NCBI GenBank assembly: GCA_017634455.1
Contig: JAGBNK010000017.1
Span: 59,625 to 123,624, forward strand
Length of the DNA: 64,000 bases
Source of the DNA: Lachnospiraceae bacterium
GTDB taxonomy: Bacteria; Bacillota; Clostridia; Lachnospirales; Lachnospiraceae
Direction of reading: 5' to 3'
Below, piece after piece: positions 9,854 to 52,322 of this stretch (position 1 is its first letter; each line of letters opens with the position of its first letter). Position numbers and translations under genes: made by a program. The notes under the pieces are model-generated. The model was not told where the DNA came from. It made no database searches and was given only the letters and a program-made list of their open reading frames with translations.

Positions 9854-10972
9854 CTAGTTTGTAATTGTCATCTCTGTCTCTTTGTCGAAGAAGTGAGACT
9901 TCTCCATATCAAATGCAAATGTAACTGTATCACCTGTTCTAGCTGTTGTACGAGGATCAACTCTAGCTGTAACCTTGGCACCTGCATAATCGAAGTATAA
10001 AAATACTTCAGCACCAAGAAGCTCATATACATTTATCTTTGCATCAAACTTGCACTCCTGTGCTGTTTCAATAAACATCTGTGAATCATTGATATCCTCT
10101 GGGCGAATACCAAATACAACTGTCTTGCCTTCATATCCCTTCTCAATAAGAGTCTTTGCCTTGGCAGCTGGGATTAATAAATCAGTCTTACCACCATCGA
10201 TTGAAGCATATACCTTGTCTCCAACCTTCTTGATAACCGCATCGATGAAGTTCATCTGTGGTGATCCAATAAATCCAGCAACGAACTGGTTGCATGGCTT
10301 GTTATATAAGTTCTGAGGTGTATCAATCTGCTGTGCAACACCGTCCTTCATAACAACGATTCTAGTTCCAAGAGTCATAGCCTCTGTCTGATCATGTGTA
10401 ACGTAGATGATTGTAGCTCCTAAATCATCATGTAATTTAGAAATCTCTGTTCTCATCTGAACACGAAGCTTAGCATCAAGGTTAGAAAGTGGCTCATCCA
10501 TAAGGAACACCTTTGGCTCACGAACGATTGCACGTCCCATTGCAACTCTCTGTCTCTGTCCACCTGACAAAGCCTTTGGCTTACGCTGTAAATACTCTGT
10601 AAGATTCAATACCTTAGCTGCATGCTCAACTTTTTCCTTGATTACATCTGCAGGAACCTTACGAAGCTTCAATGCAAATGCCATGTTATCAAATACTGTC
10701 ATATGTGGATACAATGCGTAGTTCTGGAATACCATTGCGATATCTCTATCCTTTGGCTCCACATCATTCATTACCTTGCCGTCGATTGTAAGCTCACCAG
10801 CTGTAATATCTTCAAGACCAGCAATCATTCTAAGTGTAGTAGACTTACCACATCCTGAAGGTCCAACGAAGATGATGAACTCCTTATCCTTAATATCAAG
10901 ATTGAAATCCTTTACAGCCTCTGCGCCGTTTGGATATGTTTTACAAATGTTTTTTAATGTAATATTAGCCAT
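9854..10972 (-). CDS. Carbohydrate ABC transporter ATP-binding protein (MsmK/MalK/UgpC type)
   Basis: Walker A GPSGCGKST, signature LSGGQRQR, Walker B FLMDEPLSNLD, and a MalK-like C-terminal regulatory domain. Confidence 0.9.
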   Translation of the reverse strand: MANITLKNICKTYPNGAEAVKDFNLDIKDKEFIIFVGPSGCGKSTTLRMIAGLEDITAGELTIDGKVMNDVEPKDRDIAMVFQNYALYPHMTVFDNMAFALKLRKVPADVIKEKVEHAAKVLNLTEYLQRKPKALSGGQRQRVAMGRAIVREPKVFLMDEPLSNLDAKLRVQMRTEISKLHDDLGATIIYVTHDQTEAMTLGTRIVVMKDGVAQQIDTPQNLYNKPCNQFVAGFIGSPQMNFIDAVIKKVGDKVYASIDGGKTDLLIPAAKAKTLIEKGYEGKTVVFGIRPEDINDSQMFIETAQECKFDAKINVYELLGAEVFLYFDYAGAKVTARVDPRTTARTGDTVTFAFDMEKSHFFDKETEMTITN

Positions 10973-11071
10973 GAAAAAACCTCCCTATTTCAATTGCTTT
11001 ATGTTGCAATTATAAGAGAGGTTTAAAATTCATGCTATGTTAAATCAACCAAATATTTATTCTATGTTTCG

Positions 11072-11692
11072 TTATTTTGTAAAAACCTGGTTATTATACA
11101 GGTCAATCCACTCTTCTAAGCTCAGTGGTTCATAGTCAGAATACATGCAGAAGCAGTTGATCATATTGCTCTGTAAATGTACATCCTGTCCCTCACGGTT
11201 CTGTACGACTGTATCTCGTGTAATAGTTTGAAACTGTCGAACAAGCTGTTCATCATGGGTGTCATGCACATGTCCATAGAGCATATAGGTCTTGGGCTGG
11301 CCTTCCTTGTTCATAATATACTGCCCGCTATAACATACAATTGGATAATGGCACATAACCACCTTGTATCCATTATCATGAGTCTCCGCATATGCCTTAA
11401 CCCATTTAAAACGATTTCTGTCAAATCCGCCTCTGTTGAGGTATCTGCCGTCATGATTTCCTTCTATTAAATGTAGCTTACCATTTAACCTATCTAAAAG
11501 CCAATTGGTCTCCTCAGCATTTCCATAAGACAAATCCCCCAGTATAAATACCTCGTCCTTGTTTCTGACTTTGGCATTCCATTTTTCAATCATGTATTCA
11601 TTCATTTCTTCCACCGTAGCAAATCCACGGTTGTCCATACTATGGTTCAGACTCTTATGGAAGAAATGGCAATCTGAAATATAATATTTCAT
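11072..11692 (-). CDS. Metallophosphoesterase family protein
   Basis: Calcineurin-like motifs: DCHF near the N-terminus, GDLS, GNHD and GHVH. Confidence 0.8.
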   Translation of the reverse strand: MKYYISDCHFFHKSLNHSMDNRGFATVEEMNEYMIEKWNAKVRNKDEVFILGDLSYGNAEETNWLLDRLNGKLHLIEGNHDGRYLNRGGFDRNRFKWVKAYAETHDNGYKVVMCHYPIVCYSGQYIMNKEGQPKTYMLYGHVHDTHDEQLVRQFQTITRDTVVQNREGQDVHLQSNMINCFCMYSDYEPLSLEEWIDLYNNQVFTK

Positions 11693-41934: not shown

Positions 41935-42357
41935 TTAATATTTTAAGGATTTCCATGCATCAACCAAGCCATCAGTATCACCTTCATCACGGCTTAATAT
42001 AAAACTAATTTTTTTGCAGGGCAGGCTAAGCATAATCTTAACATCCTTCACGAATATACTATAATCATGCATTGACAATTCATCCCCATTATTATGTTCA
42101 TAACGCCTCTCTTTATTATCTTTTACAATAATTACAAATCTTTCATCACGCACAATTTTCACTTTCTGATTAAAAAAAGATAGATAAGGGCAAATTGCTA
42201 GTAACAAAAACATAATAACAAAGGATATAAATGAATTAATTCCGTAGGATGCTCCTGTAATATTAGTTAAGTAATCTAAAATCAAAAAAGCAAAAAAACC
42301 ACTTGCAACTGATAACACTTGCTTTAACATAATTCTTTGACATTTAAACTCAATCAT
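41935..42357 (-). CDS. Hypothetical membrane protein: two TM helices plus a soluble C-terminal domain of about 80 aa
   Basis: GGAGGAAA RBS before the ATG. Hydrophobic segments are VLSVASGFFAFLILDYL and FISFVIMFLLLAICPYLSFF. No recognised motif. Confidence 0.5.
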   Translation of the reverse strand: MIEFKCQRIMLKQVLSVASGFFAFLILDYLTNITGASYGINSFISFVIMFLLLAICPYLSFFNQKVKIVRDERFVIIVKDNKERRYEHNNGDELSMHDYSIFVKDVKIMLSLPCKKISFILSRDEGDTDGLVDAWKSLKY

Positions 42358-42374: not shown

Positions 42375-42962
42375 TTAGTCCACAACATGATACACGCCTT
42401 CCCCTTCCTGGAATGCATACATATTATATCCATCCATTGGATTGTCTAATTCAGCTCCGTAACTATCCGGCAATAAGCTATGGTCAAATATCACCTCATC
42501 TTCATCTATAAACTCTAAATGAACATAATAAATTGTTCTATTCGCCTCATCTACCAACGCATATTCATATCCACAGTCCCATTTATTAATAGTTTCATAT
42601 GCATTAAACTTATAATCAGTAGTATTATTGTTTATTGTATGAATGTCGGACTTATATGTAACGGAAATATTAGTCAAACGACTAACCTCATCGTGGAATT
42701 TATCCACATCATATTTACATACAAGATAAATCTGATAATCATCATCAAAGACTCCACTTCTTTCCCAATAATAATAATCAAGTACTTCTCCTTCATTCAC
42801 TTTATCTGGAAAAATCAGCAAATTACCGTTTCCACTGAATTCTGATTTATCCATATACTTACTAACATCAGTATTTGCTCTAGGATGGATTGTAAAATAT
42901 CCTCCAGCAACAACTATCGCCAAAATAATTAATACTATTCCCAAAAATATTTTCTTCTTCAT
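42375..42962 (-). CDS. Hypothetical N-terminally anchored extracytoplasmic protein
   Basis: I prefer the start MKKKIFLGIVLIILAIVVAGG at 42962, which has GGGGGG 8 nt upstream; the track ORF begins at 42995. No recognised domain. Confidence 0.5.
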   Translation of the reverse strand: MKKKIFLGIVLIILAIVVAGGYFTIHPRANTDVSKYMDKSEFSGNGNLLIFPDKVNEGEVLDYYYWERSGVFDDDYQIYLVCKYDVDKFHDEVSRLTNISVTYKSDIHTINNNTTDYKFNAYETINKWDCGYEYALVDEANRTIYYVHLEFIDEDEVIFDHSLLPDSYGAELDNPMDGYNMYAFQEGEGVYHVVD

Positions 42963-42994: not shown

Positions 42995-43663
42995 TTAAAG
43001 GTTCAATTTCTCAATCACAGACTCATCCAGCTCATTTGATAAATCTCCATAATACCAATTGCCATTCTCCTTTAACATAATGGCATATAAAACCATAGGC
43101 ATTTCTGTAGAATACAGTGAGCCAGCTGCATAAGCATTTGATGAATTAGAGCCATTAGCATAATTACCACTATTTTTTGCACATACATATATAATTGAGT
43201 CTGCATCTCTTATTTCTTCATCAGAATATTTAACATCTGGATATATATCATTTAAACTCACCAAAATCTCCTTGCTTATATCCACATGCTTATCCATACT
43301 TCTGCCTAGCATATTGGGTTTAATCATCTCAAAAGAATCTTTTTTATTCAGCATATTCTGCCTATACTCCTGCGATTCAAACAGAGATGAATCCGCATAT
43401 AATTGATTATTCTCATTGCATCGATATAAAACCTGCCCATCTGATGTACTATAAATCCGATACTTTCCTTCTTGTTCATATTGTTCAACATCAAATGATT
43501 CAAAATCCATAACATTGTCTGATGCAATAAACAACTTTCCATCATATACAACTGGCGAGTAAATCTCACCGCGAAGTCCTGATACACCATCCGATGTAGC
43601 CTTTGACGCACATCCTGTCAAAACTATACTACACAGCAGCATTGCTACTACACATTTAAACAT
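42995..43663 (-). CDS. Hypothetical lipoprotein
   Basis: The start at 43663 gives MFKCVVAMLLCSIVLTGCASK, a classical lipobox (LTGC). Its ATG overlaps the stop of the upstream gene (ATGTTTAA). Confidence 0.6.
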   Translation of the reverse strand: MFKCVVAMLLCSIVLTGCASKATSDGVSGLRGEIYSPVVYDGKLFIASDNVMDFESFDVEQYEQEGKYRIYSTSDGQVLYRCNENNQLYADSSLFESQEYRQNMLNKKDSFEMIKPNMLGRSMDKHVDISKEILVSLNDIYPDVKYSDEEIRDADSIIYVCAKNSGNYANGSNSSNAYAAGSLYSTEMPMVLYAIMLKENGNWYYGDLSNELDESVIEKLNL

Positions 43664-44045
43664 TCCATGCCAATTTATACGCTTCAACTCTATACCATTC
43701 ATCTTTATTATCCCCCAAAGAAATTCCATCTAAACCTTTTGATGCAATATATGCGGCCGCAGTAGCAACCATAGGATTGACTGTAGCTAACGCCGGCACA
43801 GCAGCCGCTCCATAATATCCATACACAGCATGTGCATGAATTTCTTGCGCTACTTCAGTCCGTGTCATATTCAAGCAATATCCATCTTGCTTAAGGTATT
43901 TCGCTTTTGCTAAACAAACATCTTTATTTAAATAATCTCTTCTTGTCTGTAACGTGATAGCTCTCCCTCCTTCAATTTCCTCCATTTTGTCTAGTACTTC
44001 ATACCCTACAGGCAATAAAATACTCTCCTCTCTTGTCTTCTTCAT
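43656..44045 (-). CDS. Candidate double-glycine-leader secreted protein B (129 aa precursor, about 102 aa mature)
   Basis: AAAGGAGG RBS. The N-terminus MKKTREESILLPVGYEVLDKMEEIEGG/RAIT... has M at -7, I at -4 and GG at -2/-1. The mature part is Ala/Gly-rich with 2 Cys. Confidence 0.5.
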   Translation of the reverse strand: MKKTREESILLPVGYEVLDKMEEIEGGRAITLQTRRDYLNKDVCLAKAKYLKQDGYCLNMTRTEVAQEIHAHAVYGYYGAAAVPALATVNPMVATAAAYIASKGLDGISLGDNKDEWYRVEAYKLAWNV

Positions 44046-44077
44046 TGTAAAAATCCTCCTTTAAAATAAATATATAT

Positions 44078-44096
44078 ATGTAAATTAGTATTACAT
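44078..44096. promoter_or_regulatory. Dyad ATGTAA-N7-TTACAT upstream of precursor B
   Basis: 6-bp perfect inverted repeat in the 74-bp gap between the Big_2 gene and precursor B. Confidence 0.35.
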
Positions 44097-44119
44097 ATCC
44101 ATTTTGTAAACACTCCCAG

Positions 44120-45304
44120 CTACCAAAACCAATATCTTTTAGCAGAAAAAATATATATCGACAAAACTACCGCGCCTAACCCTGCTGAGCCTATAAGTAT
44201 ATATTTTAGATTTACAGTTTTTGCACCCAATTTTTTATCTGTAATAATATACTTTCCCTCTCGAGTTATCGTCAGACAAGCAATATCATCAGTATCCAGC
44301 AATTCATATTTATCTTTTTCATCATTAAAAAGATATAATTTACCACCATTTAAATCGTCTAATTCAAGTTTTATCTCACCACACAATTTTTGACCTTTGT
44401 TAATTTCAAATTCCAAGCCATCATCTGTCTTAACCATATTTATATTCGTATAAAATATATTTTTAAAATTCTTTATCTTCTTACCATCAATTATAATTGA
44501 ATATCCTTCTCCCACTATCTTTACTGACTTTCCACTCTTGTTGAGTTTATACAGGAATTCAGCATCTAAACATTCAACTGTAGAAGCATATACTACATCC
44601 GGACAATCAAAAATCTCACCAACTTCAACCGACCCTATATTTACAGGATCTCTATAACGATAATTATCCGCTGTATCTTCATTTACAATTACATTTATAG
44701 AATTAGACATCTGTCCATTTGAAACAATAATTGTAGTTGCACCAGAATTATTAGCAATTACATTCCCCTCAACATCAACGTCTGCTACAGAGGCATCCAT
44801 CGTCTTATATGATAATAATTGTTCTGCATCTTCCGGAGAAACTGATGCTTCAATTCTATATCTTTCTCCCGGCTTTAATACAACATAATTGTTTAATACA
44901 TTAATAGCTTTCGTTTTTACCTTCACATTAATATCAACCTGCTTTATTACATTATCAGCAGCGATTGTAATAGTAGCACTTCCCTTTGATATAGCTTTTA
45001 TTTCACCATCCGAGTTAACAGTAACAATGTTTTCATTAGATGATTCATAACGGACATTGCTTTTATCAGCTGACTCTGGAACAATTTTCACTCTCAAATC
45101 ACCCGTTGCTCCAACATATAATTCATCATCATATTCTAATATCTCTATATCTGTAATCTGCGATGATATCTCAGCCTCTTTTTCATCCTCGTAATCTTCC
45201 CTTATCTCTTCCGCTTGGCATAAGTTCTCTGATATGCCAAATACTATAACAATACTGATAATGCAAACAATTGTTTTCAGATTTCTATAAAAATATCTTC
45301 TCAT
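44120..45304 (-). CDS. Surface protein with two Big_2 (bacterial Ig-like) domains and a C-terminal TM anchor
   Basis: Signal peptide, then two segments of about 75 aa with the Big_2 pattern (VTVNSDGEIKAISKGSATITI and ADVDVEGNVIANNSGATTIIV). C-terminal helix LIGSAGLGAVVLSIYIF. Confidence 0.7.
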   Translation of the reverse strand: MRRYFYRNLKTIVCIISIVIVFGISENLCQAEEIREDYEDEKEAEISSQITDIEILEYDDELYVGATGDLRVKIVPESADKSNVRYESSNENIVTVNSDGEIKAISKGSATITIAADNVIKQVDINVKVKTKAINVLNNYVVLKPGERYRIEASVSPEDAEQLLSYKTMDASVADVDVEGNVIANNSGATTIIVSNGQMSNSINVIVNEDTADNYRYRDPVNIGSVEVGEIFDCPDVVYASTVECLDAEFLYKLNKSGKSVKIVGEGYSIIIDGKKIKNFKNIFYTNINMVKTDDGLEFEINKGQKLCGEIKLELDDLNGGKLYLFNDEKDKYELLDTDDIACLTITREGKYIITDKKLGAKTVNLKYILIGSAGLGAVVLSIYIFSAKRYWFW

Positions 45305-45311
45305 CTTTTTA

Positions 45312-46439
45312 TTATCTAATCTTCACTCCAAGCTTTTCTAATACATAATTAAAGTATGTCACCTTGTCGTATTGAATATTTGCTTTTGCAGTCATGCCGT
45401 TTACAATATCTACCTTATCGCCTTTTTTACTCAGCAAATAATCCTGCGGCAATGATATCTTAATCTTAAAGACCTGATTTTTGCTTCCATCAGAACCTTC
45501 CTGGACTGTGACATCACTATCAATGCTCAATATTTTTCCAGCTATGGTACCATACACATTTTGCGCCAAACCATCTACAACAATTTGCGCAGAATCATCC
45601 ACATGCATCCTTGCCATATCTGCTGTTGAGACATATGCTTCTACAATTTTAGATGTGTTTTCTGGTGTGATTGTTGCCACAGCAGTTGTTGTCTGAACCA
45701 CCACTCCATTTTTGAATTCACCTAATAAATGTAATGTACCTGAAGTTGTTGCCGTAACCCTACTTGCATTTTGACCATTAGCAACCGCAAGAAGCTGAGC
45801 ATCAATAGCAGATATCTGTGCCTTCAGCTCCTCTATTTTTACTTCTGCATTTTGTATTGAAGAGTAATATATGTCACTTATTTTATTCTGATTAATATCA
45901 AGTTGTGTCTGTATCTGTTCCTCACTATATCCATATGCTTGATATGTTGATACATCTAGCTGGCTCTGACCTATCTGTGATTTATACGCTTCATACATGC
46001 TCCAATATAAACCTTCTTCTGAATCCGACTCATCAAAATAATTATAATCATCCTTTATAGACTTAATAAGTTTCTGATATTGTCTGATTGACTCTTCATA
46101 TGACTTTTTATTCTCTTCCAGTTGTACTTTTTGCAAATCATACTCAGTAGACTTAATTGTAAAAAGCACATCGCCTTCTTTTACCAATTGTCCTTCGGTC
46201 ATATTACAATCAGTAATCTCCCCTGTATTAGAACACATTACATAAGAACCACTATCATTTGTAATTGTTCCGTGCGCCTGAATAATATATTTCTTAGGTG
46301 TCTTTATACTCCAAATAATCACAAATGCTATTACAACTGATACTAGCAGAATAAAAAAATAGCCAAATGCAGGTGGTTCCTTTTCAAACAGCAATCTTGA
46401 ATCCCTTAATTCATTTATACTTTTTATGTCCCGACTCAT
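45312..46439 (-). CDS. HlyD-family secretion accessory protein (LcnD/ComB/CvaA-like)
   Basis: N-terminal TM helix, lipoyl-like beta segment (GEITDCNMTEGQLVKEGDVLFTI), long coiled coil and C-terminal beta barrel. Confidence 0.8.
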   Translation of the reverse strand: MSRDIKSINELRDSRLLFEKEPPAFGYFFILLVSVVIAFVIIWSIKTPKKYIIQAHGTITNDSGSYVMCSNTGEITDCNMTEGQLVKEGDVLFTIKSTEYDLQKVQLEENKKSYEESIRQYQKLIKSIKDDYNYFDESDSEEGLYWSMYEAYKSQIGQSQLDVSTYQAYGYSEEQIQTQLDINQNKISDIYYSSIQNAEVKIEELKAQISAIDAQLLAVANGQNASRVTATTSGTLHLLGEFKNGVVVQTTTAVATITPENTSKIVEAYVSTADMARMHVDDSAQIVVDGLAQNVYGTIAGKILSIDSDVTVQEGSDGSKNQVFKIKISLPQDYLLSKKGDKVDIVNGMTAKANIQYDKVTYFNYVLEKLGVKIR

Positions 46440-46548: not shown

Positions 46549-47031
46549 CTACTTTTCATTAGAATAAGTTAAGCATTTTAATGCAGAATAAAGATTTGAT
46601 ATCTCCGTTTTCTCCCAATCTAATCCATCAGAATAAGCTTGTAACTTGACAATTGAATTATTATATTCAAAGACTATCAAATATCCAATCACGTCTAGCC
46701 ATTTACCACCATATCGTCTTTCTTCGTAGCGAAGATTTGCAATATTACTTAAATAATAAACCTTCTTTTCATTGACAGCATTTAGTTCAAAAACTTCATC
46801 TGAAACACTATAATTCCATGTTTTTATGCGTTTAAAGCACTTACTTTTCTCAACCACTCCATATAATACAAACGCTAACAACCAAATTAAACTTATAAGC
46901 AACTGATTACTTACATATCTTATAATTATTAACGAACATATATACGCTAGAAACATGAATAAAATAAATAAAATTAATCTTATCATCCGCCATTGAAAAA
47001 AATTAGCTAGTTTAATAGTCCCTGATGTCAT
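46549..47031 (-). CDS. Hypothetical membrane protein (two TM helices plus a soluble domain); candidate immunity or accessory protein
   Basis: Start overlaps the precursor A stop (ATGA at 47031-47028). Hydrophobic segments are IRLILFILFMFLAYICSLIII and LLISLIWLLAFVLYGVV. Confidence 0.5.
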   Translation of the reverse strand: MTSGTIKLANFFQWRMIRLILFILFMFLAYICSLIIIRYVSNQLLISLIWLLAFVLYGVVEKSKCFKRIKTWNYSVSDEVFELNAVNEKKVYYLSNIANLRYEERRYGGKWLDVIGYLIVFEYNNSIVKLQAYSDGLDWEKTEISNLYSALKCLTYSNEK

Positions 47032-47432
47032 ATTGTCACATACCCATCAAGTTTTTTGTCCCAAGCATCCCACGTTGTTGCAATCATTCCTCCGAGAGAA
47101 GTCATTCCTAAAACCGTCCCAACTATTCCAATTTTACTTGGAATGTATTGACCCAACGCCGTCTGAAGAACCTTATTCTGTAATACAGCTCCAATTACTT
47201 TTGAACCAACCTTCGCTGTAATACCACTACATAATTTTGCTAAACCTTTTCCCATTAGCCATCCTATTGCACTAACATTCCATACACCAAGTGCAGATAA
47301 TCCCACATCAATAGCTGTACCAACAATCCATGTAGAAACCTGCAAGCCACCTTCTGTATAGCTCATTTCATCCTCATCCATAACCATATAAGATGATGGC
47401 ATCACTAATGCTCCTTCATAACATAGTTCCAT
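47028..47432 (-). CDS. Candidate double-glycine-leader bacteriocin-like precursor A (134 aa, about 105 aa mature)
   Basis: AGGAGG 7 nt before the ATG at 47432. The leader is MELCYEGALVMPSSYMVMDEDEMSYTEGG, with M at -12, E at -8, M at -7 and GG. The mature part is Gly-rich, hydrophobic and amphipathic. Confidence 0.6.
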   Translation of the reverse strand: MELCYEGALVMPSSYMVMDEDEMSYTEGGLQVSTWIVGTAIDVGLSALGVWNVSAIGWLMGKGLAKLCSGITAKVGSKVIGAVLQNKVLQTALGQYIPSKIGIVGTVLGMTSLGGMIATTWDAWDKKLDGYVTI

Positions 47433-47583: not shown

Positions 47584-48060
47584 TCACTCCTTGATTGGCA
47601 TAAATATATCTGCAATCATTGTTTCTTCATCTTCATTTCTATCCACATAAACAGTGTAATTGCATCCATCAAGTTCAATTTCATTTTCAAATGCATAAAC
47701 ACCCAATTTATCATATGCAAACTTCAATTTATCTTCCGGGCCCATATATCTGGCATATAAACAATTAGTTACGCGCATGAGAGATTCCATCTTATACGGT
47801 TCATACACGTCATGAATGTAATTATCACTTTGAAGCATAAACTGCATATTTATATCAATTTCATTATTCTCATCTAATTCCATCTTGGTATACTGTATAA
47901 GCGGGCCAATTTGTCTTGCGCCATGAGTCTGGATATATGTATTCATCTTCGTGACCTCTGTATCTAAATTTCCGCTCTCTTCTAATTGCAAATCCACTCT
48001 ATAAGATAATACATTCTGTAATTTTAAAGTTTTGTTCTCTGAAACTATTATTTGATTCAT
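47584..48060 (-). CDS. GyrI-like (SbmC / AraC-effector-binding fold) small protein, tentative
   Basis: About 158 aa from MNQIIVSE. It has a two-repeat beta-alpha-beta-beta-like pattern ending ...TVYVDRNEDEETMIADIFMPIKE, typical of GyrI-like domains. The start is uncertain (48060 or 48108). Confidence 0.45.
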   Translation of the reverse strand: MNQIIVSENKTLKLQNVLSYRVDLQLEESGNLDTEVTKMNTYIQTHGARQIGPLIQYTKMELDENNEIDINMQFMLQSDNYIHDVYEPYKMESLMRVTNCLYARYMGPEDKLKFAYDKLGVYAFENEIELDGCNYTVYVDRNEDEETMIADIFMPIKE

Positions 48061-48111
48061 ATATCTACAGCAAATCCTCCTATTATTTAAGATGTATATC
48101 AAGCACATTCA

Positions 48112-50400
48112 TTATGTATAAGCAATTTCCTGCTCATCAAAAAATTGTTTGTACCCTTTGGGCTTCTCAGTGTCGTATGAATCATCTGCAACTTCATATA
48201 TTCCCTGTTGCATCTGCCAAAGGCGATAATACTGTCCTTGAAGCTTTATAAGTTCATCATGACTACCCTGCTCTGCGATATGACCTTTATCCATTACAAT
48301 TATCTGATCACAATTACGAACAGTAGCTAACCGATGAGCTACAATCAGCATCGTCTTATTTTTAAACTTGTTATATATCATGTCAAAAATTATATTTTCT
48401 GTTACAAAATCCAAATTAGATGTAGATTCATCCATAATGTAAAACTCATTATCTTTAAGAAATGCCCTGGCCAATGCAATACGCTGCTTCTCACCTCCGC
48501 TCAAACCGTTTCCAGCCTCCTCCAAATACGTGTAATATTGCATCGGAAGCTTCTTTATAAACTCATGTGCATCTGCTTTTTTAGCAGCTTCCTTCACTTC
48601 ATCTAAAGTAGCAGTCTGTCTACTCACTCTTATATTGTCATATATACTTTTAGAAAATAATTCTATATTCTGTGGAACATATGAGATTGCTCTACGCAAA
48701 GAACTGTTATGATACTCATTAATATCCACCCCATCTATAGTTATATATCCCTTCTCCGGCTCATAATATTTCAACAATAATTTTGCTATAGTGGATTTAC
48801 CACTTCCACTAGCCCCAACCAATGCAACTTTTTGCCCCTTTGGAATAGTAAAAGTTACATCTTCAAGCGCAGGTTTCCTATTCCCATATCTAAAAGTTAC
48901 ATTTTTAAATTCTATATCTCCATCAACTTTTTCAATCATCTGATATTGTTGATCAATACGCACTTCTGAAACAAAATCTGGCAAGCAACTGTCTTCAGCC
49001 AGTCCGACCTCCTGTTCTCGCTCATAATCTAATATTTCAGACAGCCTCTTCATCGAAATATTTGCTTCCTGAATCTGCAACTGTAACCCCACTAAATTAC
49101 TTACAGGATTAGTAAAATAACCTGCCAACGTCATAAATGCCATATAAGTTCCAAGTGTCAATTCATTATTTATTACTGATGAAATTCCCACATACATCAG
49201 CACTAAATTTCCTGCTCCAGATATAATGCTTGAAATAGTCCCCTGTACATTAGAAAGCATCGATTCCTTATATCCTATTCTTAAAGCCTTGATATATTCA
49301 CGCTCGATATTTTCTAACTCTATTTCTTCATTTGCGTTACCTTTTATTGTTTCAAAAGCTCTCAAGCTCTCAATTATTTCGGAATTTAATGCAGAATTCT
49401 GCTGCATCTGCTCTTCATTAATCCTTTTATATGGCTGTTTAAATATAAAAACCAAAACAATACTAATTAATGTCATAATCGCAATTATGCCAAATAATTT
49501 CGGATTCATCTGCCATAGAATAATCCCCGAGACAAAAGCCATACCTATATCCATAAACAATGATAATGCAATACTCGTAAAAATATTTTTAATAGTAAAT
49601 GCATCAGAAAATCTCGTCGTTATATCTCCCGTTCTTCTACTGGCAAAAAACTTCATCGGCAGCTTATAAATATGCTCGAAATATCCAAGCATAAGCGGTA
49701 TGTCAATTTTTATAGACAAATGTAGAAGTATCCATTGTCTGATAAAACTTACCATAATTGACGTAAGATTAACTCCAATAAAGACTGCCAACATCATTTT
49801 CAGAACGTCTTGTTGCTGATATGGAAGTATCTCATCATATATAACATTATTAAATAGAGATGAAACAATCCCAAGAACTGTCACAATAAGAGATGCCAAT
49901 AATGCATAAGCAAATAGTTTCTTCTGTGGCCAAAGCAATTTAATATAGCGTTCAAAAACTTTATTCCCTTTTATCTTTCCAGTAGTAAATTCATTATTGG
50001 GTTTCAGCAAAAGCAAAACGCCTGTAAAAGACTTATAAAATTCATCAATCTCGACTCTCATCAAGTCTCTTGCTGGATCACCGTATATCACATATTTCTT
50101 TGTTATTTTAAAAATAACAACAAAATGTGAAAATCCTTCCTTTGTAATAACATTTGCTATTGCCGGAAGAGTATACTTACTTTTAAACCCATCTTTATCT
50201 ACTTTTACCGCCTGTGATATAAAACCTAGCTCATCTGCGCACTTGGATAAACCAACCAAATTAGTCCCTTTTATATCTGTGCCCATAATATCTCGCAAAC
50301 TGGTAATCGTCGTCTCTTTCTTATAATGTAGGCACACCATCGCCATACAGGCTGCAGCACAGTCAGTAATATCATGCTGTTTTACAAATGTATATCTCAT
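48112..50400 (-). CDS. Peptidase C39-domain ABC exporter (bacteriocin/GG-leader processing transporter)
   Basis: N-terminal C39 motifs with the catalytic Cys (QHDITDCAAACMAMV) and the His region (FSHFVVIFKI...YGDP). Six-TM domain, Walker A GASGSGKST, signature LSGGEKQR, Walker B YIMDESTS. Confidence 0.93.
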   Translation of the reverse strand: MRYTFVKQHDITDCAAACMAMVCLHYKKETTITSLRDIMGTDIKGTNLVGLSKCADELGFISQAVKVDKDGFKSKYTLPAIANVITKEGFSHFVVIFKITKKYVIYGDPARDLMRVEIDEFYKSFTGVLLLLKPNNEFTTGKIKGNKVFERYIKLLWPQKKLFAYALLASLIVTVLGIVSSLFNNVIYDEILPYQQQDVLKMMLAVFIGVNLTSIMVSFIRQWILLHLSIKIDIPLMLGYFEHIYKLPMKFFASRRTGDITTRFSDAFTIKNIFTSIALSLFMDIGMAFVSGIILWQMNPKLFGIIAIMTLISIVLVFIFKQPYKRINEEQMQQNSALNSEIIESLRAFETIKGNANEEIELENIEREYIKALRIGYKESMLSNVQGTISSIISGAGNLVLMYVGISSVINNELTLGTYMAFMTLAGYFTNPVSNLVGLQLQIQEANISMKRLSEILDYEREQEVGLAEDSCLPDFVSEVRIDQQYQMIEKVDGDIEFKNVTFRYGNRKPALEDVTFTIPKGQKVALVGASGSGKSTIAKLLLKYYEPEKGYITIDGVDINEYHNSSLRRAISYVPQNIELFSKSIYDNIRVSRQTATLDEVKEAAKKADAHEFIKKLPMQYYTYLEEAGNGLSGGEKQRIALARAFLKDNEFYIMDESTSNLDFVTENIIFDMIYNKFKNKTMLIVAHRLATVRNCDQIIVMDKGHIAEQGSHDELIKLQGQYYRLWQMQQGIYEVADDSYDTEKPKGYKQFFDEQEIAYT

Positions 50401-50421: not shown

Positions 50422-50658
50422 TTATTTAATCAAAATCCAATCTGATAGCCATCTTTTATTTTTTCCATCATATAACCGCCTATACATTTTCCCATTTATA
50501 ACTTTTTTGATCCATTTATACTCTGTTTTCATCGATATAGATACTATTTCTTCCTGTCCCAACTCTCCATAACCAGTATACATAACTGGGTTAATTAACA
50601 AGCTCATTAATACAAACGCAATTACTATATTTACCTTTTTTGAAATACTTCTACGCAT
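50422..50658 (-). CDS. Small signal-anchored protein (78 aa), unknown function
   Basis: GGGGG RBS. N-terminal hydrophobic helix NIVIAFVLMSLLINPV. The stop lies 21 nt before the ABC start (AGGTGG RBS), so the two are probably co-transcribed. Confidence 0.45.
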   Translation of the reverse strand: MRRSISKKVNIVIAFVLMSLLINPVMYTGYGELGQEEIVSISMKTEYKWIKKVINGKMYRRLYDGKNKRWLSDWILIK

Positions 50659-50668
50659 AATAATCCCC

Positions 50669-50706
50669 CTAAAAAAATAATCACGAAAGAACCTTTCGTG
50701 ATTATT
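50669..50706 (-). terminator. Strong rho-independent terminator after the BlaR1-like gene (also a perfect 14-bp DNA palindrome)
   Basis: AATAATCACGAAAG (50676-50689) pairs with CTTTCGTGATTATT (50693-50706) around a 3-nt loop. A 7-nt U-tract follows on the minus transcript and runs directly into the RBS of the 78-aa ORF. Confidence 0.7.
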
Positions 50707-50732
50707 GTAACACTGTTAGCTTGTAGCTTCAA
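50704..50732 (-). promoter_or_regulatory. Putative promoter overlapping the terminator 5-prime arm
   Basis: The minus strand reads TTGAAG (50732-50727), a 17-nt spacer, then TACAAT (50709-50704). The palindrome TAACA-G-TGTTA (50718-50708) overlaps the -10. Confidence 0.4.
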
Positions 50733-50751
50733 GTTTTACTGTATCAATATT

Positions 50752-51921
50752 TTATTTATTCTCTCTAATCGCCAAACTATCTGGCAACAAGTACTCATAC
50801 CATTTATCTCTCTCATTAATAACATTTATACGCTCAAAAGATTCATCCATTTGTGAAATGCTCCCAAAATAAGCATCCTTATAATAAATATCATATGTGC
50901 CATCCGATTTATGAATCATATAAGAGTTTTCCGGTGTAAGATATACCGCACCCTCTTCTTCAAGAACATCTTCATCAACATAGTCCGGTTCAAAAATAAA
51001 AATATATGACAATACAAAAAAACATACTGTCATTAATAAATAAAAGTACCTTTTAAACGAGACTTTTCCCGAACTAGTCATATATTCAAACCGCTTCTTC
51101 AGAATGCTTTTATTAGATGCAAGTGTCATAATTGGTGTTTTTTCTTTATTAGCTTTATCATTTAAAGAAGCTACCAATAATTCCATATACTTTATAGTCG
51201 TTTCTTTATTTGACGCGATCTCATGATCAACCCGAATTTCTAATATTTCATTTGTTTCATTTCTAACTAGCAAAGTGACTGGATTCCACCAAAACATACA
51301 ATTCATTAGTGCAACAAAAAATTTTAACAATAAATCGCAGTTATTATAATGGGTAATCTCATGCCTTAATATTAATTCAAGATTATCATCTGAGAGCTCT
51401 ATATCTTGTGGCAATAAAACTTTTTGAACAAATAAACCCGCAATCTGAGCACTTTCTACCTTATTTGTTCTCAAAACAATCAATCTTAAAAGGCGCTTCT
51501 TCTTATACTTTTCTAAACATTTTCTAATGTTTTTATCAGCTGTAACATCAACTGCATTCCTACCAATATACTTATCAAATCGAACTGTCTCTCTTATTAA
51601 ATATACACTTTTAATTGCAAATCCAAACATCCATATTAGTAATAGAACATGCGCCACTCGAATTCTAGTACCGCCAATTTCATTCCACATTACATCTAAA
51701 TATTTGGATATATTATATGGCCAATATACATTTCTACTAATATTAAGCATCTCAACCGGAAATGCCAACCGAATAATCAATAATATAATCGAAATTATTA
51801 TTGTATTATAACCGATAGCAACTATTTTTTTGGTACTATTCAACACAATATATATATAAACAATAAACAAATTACACGATATAATTGTTGTTATAACTGA
51901 TGAAACCGTAAAATCAATCAT
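50752..51921 (-). CDS. BlaR1/MecR1-like M56 metalloprotease signal transducer lacking a penicillin-binding sensor domain
   Basis: Polytopic N-terminus, HExxH zinc motif (HEITHYNNCD), a further TM helix, then an unrecognised domain of about 90 aa. TAATG overlap with the blaI-like gene. Confidence 0.78.
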   Translation of the reverse strand: MIDFTVSSVITTIISCNLFIVYIYIVLNSTKKIVAIGYNTIIISIILLIIRLAFPVEMLNISRNVYWPYNISKYLDVMWNEIGGTRIRVAHVLLLIWMFGFAIKSVYLIRETVRFDKYIGRNAVDVTADKNIRKCLEKYKKKRLLRLIVLRTNKVESAQIAGLFVQKVLLPQDIELSDDNLELILRHEITHYNNCDLLLKFFVALMNCMFWWNPVTLLVRNETNEILEIRVDHEIASNKETTIKYMELLVASLNDKANKEKTPIMTLASNKSILKKRFEYMTSSGKVSFKRYFYLLMTVCFFVLSYIFIFEPDYVDEDVLEEEGAVYLTPENSYMIHKSDGTYDIYYKDAYFGSISQMDESFERINVINERDKWYEYLLPDSLAIRENK

Positions 51922-52322
51922 TATTTAATCTCTTTTTTGTACTCCTCAAGCATCTTTTCTAATTCAGCTACATCTTTTAATCTCTGTTTCTTTGACTTTT
52001 CTGCTCCAAGCAATCCACATACAAGTTCAATAGCTGGACGCTTATTGAGTTTCTCCATCTCATCAATATAGCATCTTGTCTGGAACTCCTCAGCAGTCAT
52101 TGTGGGCAAATAGCTTCTGCACAACACTGTTCCGCTATATCCGATTTCTCCAACCTTGATATATTCAAATTTAAGCAGCCTTCTAAGTTCAGCCTGTACA
52201 GTATTTACATTTAACTCAGAATTAATGTCACATATCTCGCTATAAGACAACGGCTTCTCTGTGTTCCATAAAATATCCATAATTTTTCTTTGTGCCTTTG
52301 TAAGTCTTTGCATAATAATCAT
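51921..52322 (-). CDS. BlaI/MecI/CopY-family winged-helix repressor
   Basis: 133 aa. The TKAQRKIMDILWNTEKPLSYSEICDINSELNVNTVQAELRRLLKFEYI pattern is typical of penicillinase-repressor family proteins. Confidence 0.83.
   Translation of the reverse strand: MIIMQRLTKAQRKIMDILWNTEKPLSYSEICDINSELNVNTVQAELRRLLKFEYIKVGEIGYSGTVLCRSYLPTMTAEEFQTRCYIDEMEKLNKRPAIELVCGLLGAEKSKKQRLKDVAELEKMLEEYKKEIK

Follow-up and report, generated by a model that had tools for sequence, protein, structure and literature searches.

Background

ATP-binding cassette (ABC) transporters that contain a peptidase (PCATs) are regarded as peptide pumps for small bacteriocins and pheromones. Their substrates, which include class II bacteriocin precursors, ComC/BlpC and class II microcins, carry an acidic, amphipathic leader that ends in a double glycine (GG), and are encoded in operons with a C39-ABC exporter and an HlyD/ComB-type protein, in which several cargos can have one leader and one exporter in common. 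Herein, we describe a gene, cargo B, in a 64,000-nucleotide stretch of contig JAGBNK010000017.1 from a Lachnospiraceae bacterium (the window; G+C content 38%). The gene occupies 43656..44045 of the minus strand, stop codon included, and its exact translation is a protein of 129 aa. Leader conservation and gene linkage make it very probable that cargo B is a GG-leader cargo that is cleaved behind its leader and exported. The part that would leave the cell is a conserved domain of about 100 residues that is predicted to fold.

Cargo B resembles the known GG-leader substrates in its leader and in its operon. The leader consensus of its family has hydrophobic residues at positions -4, -7, -12 and -15 and a Glu at -8, counted back from the predicted cleavage site, and the locus has the exporter, the HlyD/ComB-type protein and more than one cargo. 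It differs in what follows the leader: the mature part is 11.3 kDa, predicted to be folded and helical, and carries invariant polar residues, rather than being a short cationic or Gly-rich peptide. The charge is not conserved in the cargo-B family, and the leader of the window copy is shortened and misses positions -12 and -8. Class II bacteriocins are smaller than 10 kDa, usually cationic and either amphiphilic or rich in Gly, and have little stable structure in water, whereas cargo B, at 11.3 kDa and with an isoelectric point (pI) of 8.6, is predicted to be globular; no sequence or Foldseek match linked it to any of the subclasses (pediocin-like with the YGNGV box, two-peptide with GxxxG, lactococcin 972, circular, leaderless). 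Class III bacteriocins exceed 30 kDa, are released by Sec or by lysis, and are M23 or lysozyme-like hydrolases, unlike an 11.3-kDa protein with a GG leader and no hydrolase match. Judged by its sequence, cargo B is mechanistically a GG-leader PCAT cargo, which is a known kind, and lies outside the described bacteriocin classes, since it is too large and folded for class II, too small and without a hydrolase match for class III, and has no domain relative.

Two described systems come near to this locus. PCAT1 of Clostridium thermocellum (4RY2, 6V9Z) is, like the exporter in the window, a clostridial PCAT, and the C39 domains of the two are homologous (E=1e-31). CtA, the PCAT1 cargo, has 90 residues, so that both cargos fall within about 90-130 residues with leaders of about 24-29 residues, and neither has been assigned a function; CtA is held unfolded in the transporter cavity (PMC6959990). 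In contrast to this pair, the cargo-B family has no sequence similarity to CtA in a profile search of the PDB, and the window locus adds HlyD, Big_2, p174-like and candidate immunity proteins. The pneumococcal Rtg system has a long leader with an extra conserved N-terminal motif and a Pro at -18, which is found in 34/42 members of the cargo-B family, and it likewise encodes multiple cargos, presumed to be bacteriocins, each followed by small candidate immunity genes (PMC7018657). It differs in its hosts and in its regulation, which is of the Rgg/SHP type there (PMC7018657) and BlaI/BlaR-like or by extracytoplasmic function (ECF) sigma factors here. Owing to a deletion in the leader, this Pro has moved from -18 to -16 in the window copy.

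A further comparison is with the envelope toxins of type VII secretion systems and their membrane-anchored immunity proteins, in which the gene for a globular effector lies beside a gene for an anchored extracytoplasmic protein. Gram-positive effector/surface-immunity pairs of this type form tandem arrays with orphan partner copies, and one of the loci related to the window, L024, looks alike. The differences are that export of cargo B would use a bacteriocin-type PCAT and a predicted cleaved GG leader rather than type VII secretion, and that the cargo-B domain was never found fused to larger polymorphic-toxin scaffolds, the family matches being 90-135 aa long. No homology of cargo B or its partners to known toxin or immunity families was found.

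A rare gene family in Clostridia

A sequence-only reading of the window had proposed a 129-aa open reading frame (ORF) on the minus strand, and the translation of 43656-44045 reproduces the protein that it quoted letter by letter. The ATG start codon is at 44045-44043 and is preceded, at a distance of 9 nt, by the ribosome-binding site AAAGGAGG (44055..44062, minus strand), which that reading had also named. All 390 nt of the gene are identical in three other metagenome contigs (L018-L020), which carry the whole locus. A fourth contig has a 98% twin of the gene, with nine nucleotide differences of which five are synonymous. Database records MBO6154533.1 / MBQ2089005.1 list the protein as hypothetical, from the metagenome-assembled genome of a Lachnospiraceae bacterium. 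Given the identical copies, the twin, the database deposit and the 54 matches described below, cargo B is a real gene and not a chance ORF.

A word-indexed protein search with cargo B yielded the 98% twin only, and an exhaustive search was therefore needed. Phmmer (HMMER) was run over 1.84 billion cluster representatives at a threshold of E<=1e-3 and gave 54 matches. Two of these are spurious repeat proteins, one is a chimera and a few are fragments. The true relatives, about 50, have lengths of 90-135 aa. The family is rare: it comprises about 50 clusters at 50% identity, all of them from Clostridia, Lachnospiraceae or metagenomes. Counts out of 42 refer throughout to an alignment of 42 family sequences (A2), and the related loci were located by scanning genomes with a 12-sequence alignment of the family. 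Cargo B had no match in plasmid and phage collections (tblastn), and a literature search for the family motifs returned nothing relevant.

Two aberrant relatives were observed. The N-terminal segment of P0011 (139 aa) is homologous to the 174-aa accessory protein of the locus and is joined to the C-terminal half of a cargo-B-like domain, with 60% identity to residues 70-127 of cargo B; it is either the product of a deletion that fused two locus genes or an assembly chimera. In Clostridium sartagoforme JCM 1413 (L007, 9886-10306), the homologue has a frameshift just past the GG leader, whose ORF stops at 10044; the domain resumes in another frame (10001-10297). This copy is either a pseudogene or the result of a sequencing error.

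A modular double-glycine leader

The leader comprises residues 1-27 of cargo B (MKKTREESILLPVGYEVLDKMEEIEGG; 43965..44045, minus strand), with the GG at residues 26-27 and the predicted cleavage immediately after G27. The GG at -2/-1, the Ile at -4 and the Met at -7, which the sequence-only reading had pointed out, are all present. That reading had also held that homologues without the GG would argue against a leader; the bulk of the family keeps it, the leader ending in GG at one aligned column in 37/42 relatives. Two forms of leader occur in the family, one of 29 residues (xALVMPSSYAVMDEEEMTYVEGG) and a classical one of 21 residues (MKNLKGIKILTEDEMKLIEGG). The family consensus, ALVMPSSYAVMDEEEMTYVEGG, has the hydrophobic residues V-4, M-7, M-12 and Y-15, together with Glu at -8. 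By structure and mutagenesis, this pattern has been shown to dock on PCAT peptidase domains (PMC6959990, PMC7018657). The Pro at -18 of the family is preceded by hydrophobic residues at -19 to -21, which brings to mind the extra N-terminal leader motif, from -22 to -18 and including P-18, that RtgAB of pneumococcus requires (PMC7018657).

Leader hidden Markov models (HMMs), a check that the sequence-only reading had advised, recognize some of the relatives weakly and under the curated cutoffs: PF10439 matches 13/42 family members (best E=0.002) and TIGR01847 matches 5/42 (best E=0.025). The Clostridium argentinense member is named 'bacteriocin-type signal sequence domain protein' by NCBI. In two AlphaFold models built on the family alignment, the confidence jumps at the GG, with a predicted local distance difference test (pLDDT) value of 60-70 in the leader and 92-98 in the domain; for the leader of cargo B the value is 66-71, compared with about 96 for its domain. 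In the homologue of L013, a Sec-type signal or anchor replaces the GG leader, which points to an extracytoplasmic destination of the domain.

The same leader is found on different mature parts. In L031 and L029, a near-identical leader (ALVMPKNYAVVNEEEMTYVEGG) stands on 8-9 consecutive genes whose mature parts are unrelated, one of them belonging to the cargo-B family. Likewise, in C. sartagoforme (L007) and in the window, where the second precursor is cargo A, the leader is common to different cargos.

The arrays themselves (L031, 5508-10176; L029, 328-4256) consist of 8-9 GG-leader genes with diverse Gly/Ala/Trp-rich mature parts, several of which start with WCIE(R/T)HWWG or WS(I/L)S, and form a rich unannotated multi-bacteriocin locus.

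Linkage to C39 exporters and peptidases

A PCAT of 762 aa is encoded 4 kb upstream of cargo B on the same strand (48112..50400, minus strand). It consists of a C39 peptidase domain, an ABC membrane domain and an ATPase (Pfam C39, ABC_membrane and ABC_tran), and scores 568 bits on TIGR01193, for which the cutoff is 524. The alignment of its C39 domain with that of PCAT1 (4RY2) keeps the catalytic Cys, His and Asp motifs. Linkage to an exporter extends to the family: a PCAT and/or HlyD gene adjoins the homologues in L002, L004, L006, L007, L008, L012, L026, L030 and L031, and a stand-alone C39 peptidase of 135-142 aa adjoins those in L009 (C. argentinense), L011 and L032. The proposal that cargo B is the GG-leader cargo of the nearby C39 exporter is thus strengthened by the conservation of the GG, the modularity of the leader and the linkage to PCAT or C39 genes, all of which are sequence evidence.

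The stand-alone peptidases belong to a three-gene cassette of a cargo-B homologue, a C39 protein with no ABC domains and an anchored protein similar to p206 (described below). The cassette is present in L009 (Clostridium argentinense CDC 2741, 10025-11676), L032 (1123-2895) and L011 (8524-10240); the peptidase ORF of L011 is without the N-terminal Cys motif.

The mature domain and its predicted fold

The mature domain (residues 28-129; 43659..43964, minus strand), delimited by alignment A2 and the AlphaFold models, has 102 aa, a mass of 11,302.8 Da and a pI of 8.6; in the family it has about 97 residues. Three motifs mark it: Y-L-x-K-x-x-C, G-M-T-x-x-Q-I-A-x-E-I-Y-A-H-A-V-x-Y-Y and D-I-x-D-G-G-D-x-x-x-R-x-x-A-Y-x-x-I-W. 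Glu68, His72 and Ala73 are invariant among the 42 sequences, Cys44 is kept in 41/42 (with one Ser), Asp115 and Trp127 in 40/42 each, and Arg119 in 33/42. The positions conserved in at least 90% of the alignment include G26 and G27 of the leader, and L39, C44, A48, A66, Y77, D115 and W127. As read from the alignment, the conserved core is a predicted central helix with Glu68-x3-His72, together with Cys44, Asp115, Arg119 and Trp127. With Cys, Asp and Arg beside it, the invariant Glu-x3-His could form an active or metal-binding site, an assignment that we offer only tentatively and hold to be somewhat less likely than not.

Two AlphaFold models built on the family alignment have the same topology and mean pLDDT values of 89.3 and 89.6, with about 95 in the domain. 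The leader is flexible or helical in the models, and the domain is compact and mostly helical. From its N-terminus, the modelled domain starts with a short strand, continues with two helices, the second of which has Cys44 close to its beginning, and then forms a loop. A long central helix follows, in which Glu68 and His72 are one turn apart, and then a variable helical hairpin. The C-terminal part is made of a second short strand, a DGGD-type loop containing Asp115, and a helix that carries Arg119, Tyr123 and Trp127. Foldseek searches with both models against the PDB and with one against BFVD returned best matches of E ~2 and TM scores of at most 0.3, and the HD-domain/phosphohydrolase matches in BFVD (probability at most 0.06) were judged to be noise. 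Searches of Pfam, NCBIfam and PHROGs with the window protein gave no match except a meaningless one to RRM_8 (E=0.036), and, whether the single protein or the family profile was used, sequence searches of the PDB, which includes CtA (6V9Z), gave chance matches only. On the searches and predicted models together, the mature domain is a rare, uncharacterized family with no known sequence or structural relative in the searches made. The earlier statement that cargo B resembles no known bacteriocin family therefore holds across Pfam, NCBIfam, PHROGs, the PDB and Foldseek.

Two other features first noted in the sequence of the domain are present but are to be read differently. A possible disulfide had been suggested for its two Cys residues, Cys44 and Cys57. 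Cys57 is kept in 4/42 members as against 41/42 for Cys44, so that a disulfide is not a feature of the family, and a conserved one was rejected. The Ala-rich hydrophobic stretch AVYGYYGAAAVPALATVNPMVATAAAYIA is likewise present in the window protein, and nowhere in the family do length and polarity vary more than in this region (residues 78-104). Since its maximum Kyte-Doolittle average over 19 residues is 1.39 and it contains two prolines, the stretch is not transmembrane. Rather, the models place it in the variable helical hairpin of a globular fold, and a transmembrane segment was rejected on hydropathy, model and family variability alike.

Partner and candidate immunity genes

A gene for a protein similar to p206 adjoins the cargo-B gene in no fewer than ten independent loci, namely the window, L003, L004, L009, L011, L022, L023, L024, L030 and L032. 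These proteins, of 184-236 aa, begin with a membrane anchor or a lipobox, followed by an extracytoplasmic domain, and have the conserved motifs IFP, YL, E-x-x-R, Y-x-Y-A and P. The N-terminus of p206 consists of KKK followed by a membrane helix, and the bulk of the protein is accordingly predicted to lie outside the cell. The window member of the family has 195 aa (42375..42962, minus strand); it is anchored N-terminally, and its extracytoplasmic domain comprises about 165 aa. In L024, tandem cargo/p206 pairs are followed by extra p206-like copies, a layout typical of toxin-immunity arrays.

Between cargo B and the p206-family gene, the window encodes a lipoprotein with the lipobox LTGC (42995..43702, minus strand), for which both 43702 and 43663 are possible start positions. 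The beginning of this gene overlaps the stop codon of cargo B, which suggests translational coupling, and the lipoprotein is perhaps a second partner or immunity protein. A homologue search with it returned only itself. Two short collinear BLASTP segments (E=0.008 and 0.086) align it with anchored proteins downstream of the homologues in L002 and L014, and homology to these proteins or to p206 was unsupported, with hhalign probabilities of 5% and 0.5%. No annotation was found for the partner and downstream families.

Proposed function and its alternatives

We propose the following course of events. The C39 domain of the PCAT (48112-50400) would bind the amphipathic N-terminal leader of the cargo B precursor and cut the precursor after Gly26-Gly27. 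The 102-residue remainder would then be translocated unfolded by the PCAT, together with its HlyD-type partner (45312-46439), and outside the cell it would fold into a compact, mostly helical domain. This domain would act on the exterior of target cells through its polar site, either enzymatically or by binding a metal or ligand. The producer would be protected by the surface-anchored p206-family protein (42375-42962) and perhaps by the lipoprotein (42995-43702). An antibacterial, envelope-directed effector appears the most likely function because of the pairing with a surface partner, the cassette arrays and the bacteriocin-like cargos that bear the same leader. Taken as a whole, the model of an exported GG-leader cargo that is an antibacterial effector with protection encoded downstream is, on sequence grounds, reasonably probable. 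For the part of it that assigns antibacterial activity to cargo B and immunity to the p206 family, we consider the case evenly balanced.

Several observations weigh against this interpretation. Compared with the family consensus, the window leader has a two-residue deletion (LLPVGYEVLD--KMEEIEGG), as a result of which -12 is Glu and -8 is Lys, while Ile at -4, Met at -7 and Val at -15 fit. The comparison with pediocin- and ComC-type leaders made in the sequence-only reading thus stands for the GG, -4 and -7 and fails at -12 and -8. In PCAT1, the change L(-12)A strongly reduces substrate binding (PMC6959990); V-11 and L-10 of the window leader might substitute for the missing hydrophobic residue. 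The window protein itself has no match to any leader HMM of Pfam or NCBIfam at E<0.1. In a small clade (P0035, L003), 'FDG' replaces the GG and the nearest 6.8 kb contain no PCAT gene, and a few family members are apparently leaderless. The pI of the mature domain ranges from 4.5 to 10.4 across the family, unlike that of typical cationic bacteriocins, and is therefore a misfit with a mechanism of cationic amphiphilicity. The conserved polar residues could be purely structural. Finally, the evidence for an immunity role of p206 is its gene neighbourhood, and the genes downstream of cargo B vary by locus, being ECF sigma/anti-sigma pairs, two-transmembrane (two-TM) proteins or anchored proteins of 270-310 aa.

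Some of these points could equally be taken to mean that the GG is incidental and that cargo B is a cytoplasmic or membrane-associated immunity or regulatory protein, neither cleaved nor exported. The gaps at -12 and -8, the missing HMM match and the few relatives with no GG or no leader would fit such a protein, which we nevertheless consider highly improbable: the GG falls at the predicted boundary between disorder and domain in 37/42 relatives, the same leader stands on up to nine other cargos, one homologue has a Sec-type signal instead, and in three loci the gene next door encodes a stand-alone C39 peptidase. If export is granted, the cargo need not be antagonistic. It could be a signal for the BlaR-like/BlaI or ECF pairs, or a surface enzyme or structural factor directed at the producer itself, with p206 as receptor, anchor or maturation partner. 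The trio of BlaI, BlaR and a 78-aa protein beside family members in the window, L003 and L014, the ECF sigma and anti-sigma genes directly downstream in L006, L007, L024 and L025, and the lack of the usual bacteriocin-type histidine kinase/response regulator pair in the locus all suit this idea. However, PCAT pheromones are short peptides and not folded domains of 100 residues with invariant Glu and His, the regulators are missing from most loci, and the tandem cargo/p206 cassettes with orphan p206 copies in L024 follow the pattern of toxin-immunity arrays; we hold a non-antagonistic role to be quite unlikely.

An antibacterial cargo could also act in another way, as a membrane-permeabilizing bacteriocin that, once exported, pushes its Ala/Gly-rich hairpin (residues 74-104) into the membrane of the target, as do helical bundles of the colicin or Bcl-2 type with their buried hydrophobic hairpin, the polar residues being structural only. 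The window protein, P0050, P0036 and P0012 do have a long apolar hairpin between amphipathic helices, the sister cargos encoded alongside are hydrophobic Gly/Ala-rich peptides of the classical bacteriocin-like kind, and two-TM proteins, which are typical of immunity to membrane-active bacteriocins, are encoded after the L008 homologue and at 41935-42357 of the window. Yet the hairpin is the most variable element in length and sequence and is polar in many relatives (e.g., P0021, P0033, P0038), its Kyte-Doolittle maximum is 1.39 and it contains two prolines, the net charge is not conserved, the residues that are conserved form a polar set, and Foldseek gave no colicin, Bcl-2 or saposin match. 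Membrane insertion of this kind thus appears unlikely.

If cargo B is exported as proposed, a single leader and a single pump are used for classical hydrophobic peptides as well as for a conserved domain of 100 residues, predicted to be folded, that has enzyme-like invariant residues and a surface-anchored partner family of its own. If the antibacterial role is true, the cargos of PCATs in gut Clostridia and Lachnospiraceae would span a broader range than has been assumed, a new fold and possibly a new activity directed at the envelope could be studied, and the leader ALVMPxxYxVMxEEEMxYVEGG would offer a bioinformatic handle with which to mine more cargos. A broader generalization would make the family a new class of Gram-positive interbacterial effectors: small globular enzymes or metal-binders with a new fold and a Glu-x3-His/Cys/Asp centre, exported by PCATs through a modular GG leader, attacking the envelope from outside and encoded in cassettes with p206 immunity. 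We regard this generalization as speculative and rather improbable; if it were true, such effector-immunity cassettes would, by analogy, resemble type VI/VII systems.

Layout of the locus and further observations

All genes of the window locus are on the minus strand. In the order of transcription, the locus begins with genes for a BlaI-like repressor and a BlaR-like M56 sensor (50752-52322), followed by one for a 78-aa protein located between the sensor and the PCAT; the three genes span 50422-52322. The PCAT gene is followed by a gene for a 174-aa protein with a faint DUF5085 match (47584-48108) and by cargo A (47028..47432), a precursor of 134 aa according to gene callers. The GG leader of cargo A (MELCYEGALVMPSSYMVMDEDEMSYTEGG...) is common to the cargo-B consensus, and its mature part is Gly/Ala-rich and hydrophobic. 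A two-TM protein of 160 aa is encoded between cargo A and the HlyD/ComB-type accessory protein (375 aa, 45312..46439), which is kept beside the PCAT in related loci. The gene directly upstream of cargo B encodes a Big_2 Ig-like protein of 394 aa with a C-terminal membrane anchor (44120..45304; Pfam Big_2, 3e-19). Downstream of the lipoprotein and p206-family genes, the locus ends with a gene for a two-TM protein of 140 aa (41935-42357).

The spacer of 74 nt between the Big_2 gene and cargo B contains the dyad ATATGTAA-N7-TTACATAT (8+8; 44076..44098). The sequence-only reading had assigned the gene its own upstream dyad, which is indeed there but is statistically unremarkable. Its exact pattern occurs once in the window, where 0.56 occurrences are expected if one mismatch is allowed, and as RNA the spacer is no more stably folded than shuffled sequence (z = -1.1). 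Together with an Rfam search of the locus, in which no family was found, this led us to reject the dyad as an RNA element. It was also rejected as a BlaI box, since its geometry is TGTAA-N7-TTACA and not TACAnnTGTA. The dyad may be an operator or a chance feature.

With regard to regulation, neither the ORFs of the window locus nor domain searches revealed a histidine kinase/response regulator pair. The trio of BlaI-like, M56 BlaR-like and 78-80-aa proteins flanks cargo-B family genes in the window (50422-52322, minus strand), L003 (4809-6497) and L014 (8046-9798), and its presence in three otherwise different loci suggests that it regulates them. Nine copies of the palindrome TACANNTGTA, which forms the core of BlaI/CopY-type operators, are present in the 64-kb window compared with 1.1 expected from shuffled sequences, and one of them (50383-50392) lies inside the first codons of the PCAT gene. 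In four other loci, the homologue is directly followed downstream by a gene for an ECF-type sigma factor and by one or two genes for anti-sigma proteins with a zinc finger (L006, 10513-12017; L007, 10429-11948; L024, 10420-11864; L025, 6843-8080).

Two further gene families recur in the loci. The first encodes a protein of about 155-175 aa that matches DUF5085 only faintly and is kept between the PCAT gene and the HlyD or cargo genes; in addition to 47584-48108 of the window, its gene is found in L004 (4231-4704), L006 (8245-8751), L008 (9959-10438), L012 (10674-11141), L030 (2716-3180) and L031 (10557-11045). All loci with this protein have cargos bearing the long 'LVMPxxY...' leader, and the protein may be an exporter accessory that has gone unrecognized, for example an adaptor or a chaperone that binds the leader. 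The Big_2 protein with its C-terminal anchor regularly comes after HlyD, in the window (44120-45304) as well as in L002 (6827-8578), L008 (11562-12491) and L031 (12441-13502). In the clade with FDG in place of GG, a Phage_holin_4_1 (TcdE-like holin) gene (L003, 3756-4211, minus strand) is situated 2 kb from the family gene, and release through this holin is conceivable as an alternative route.

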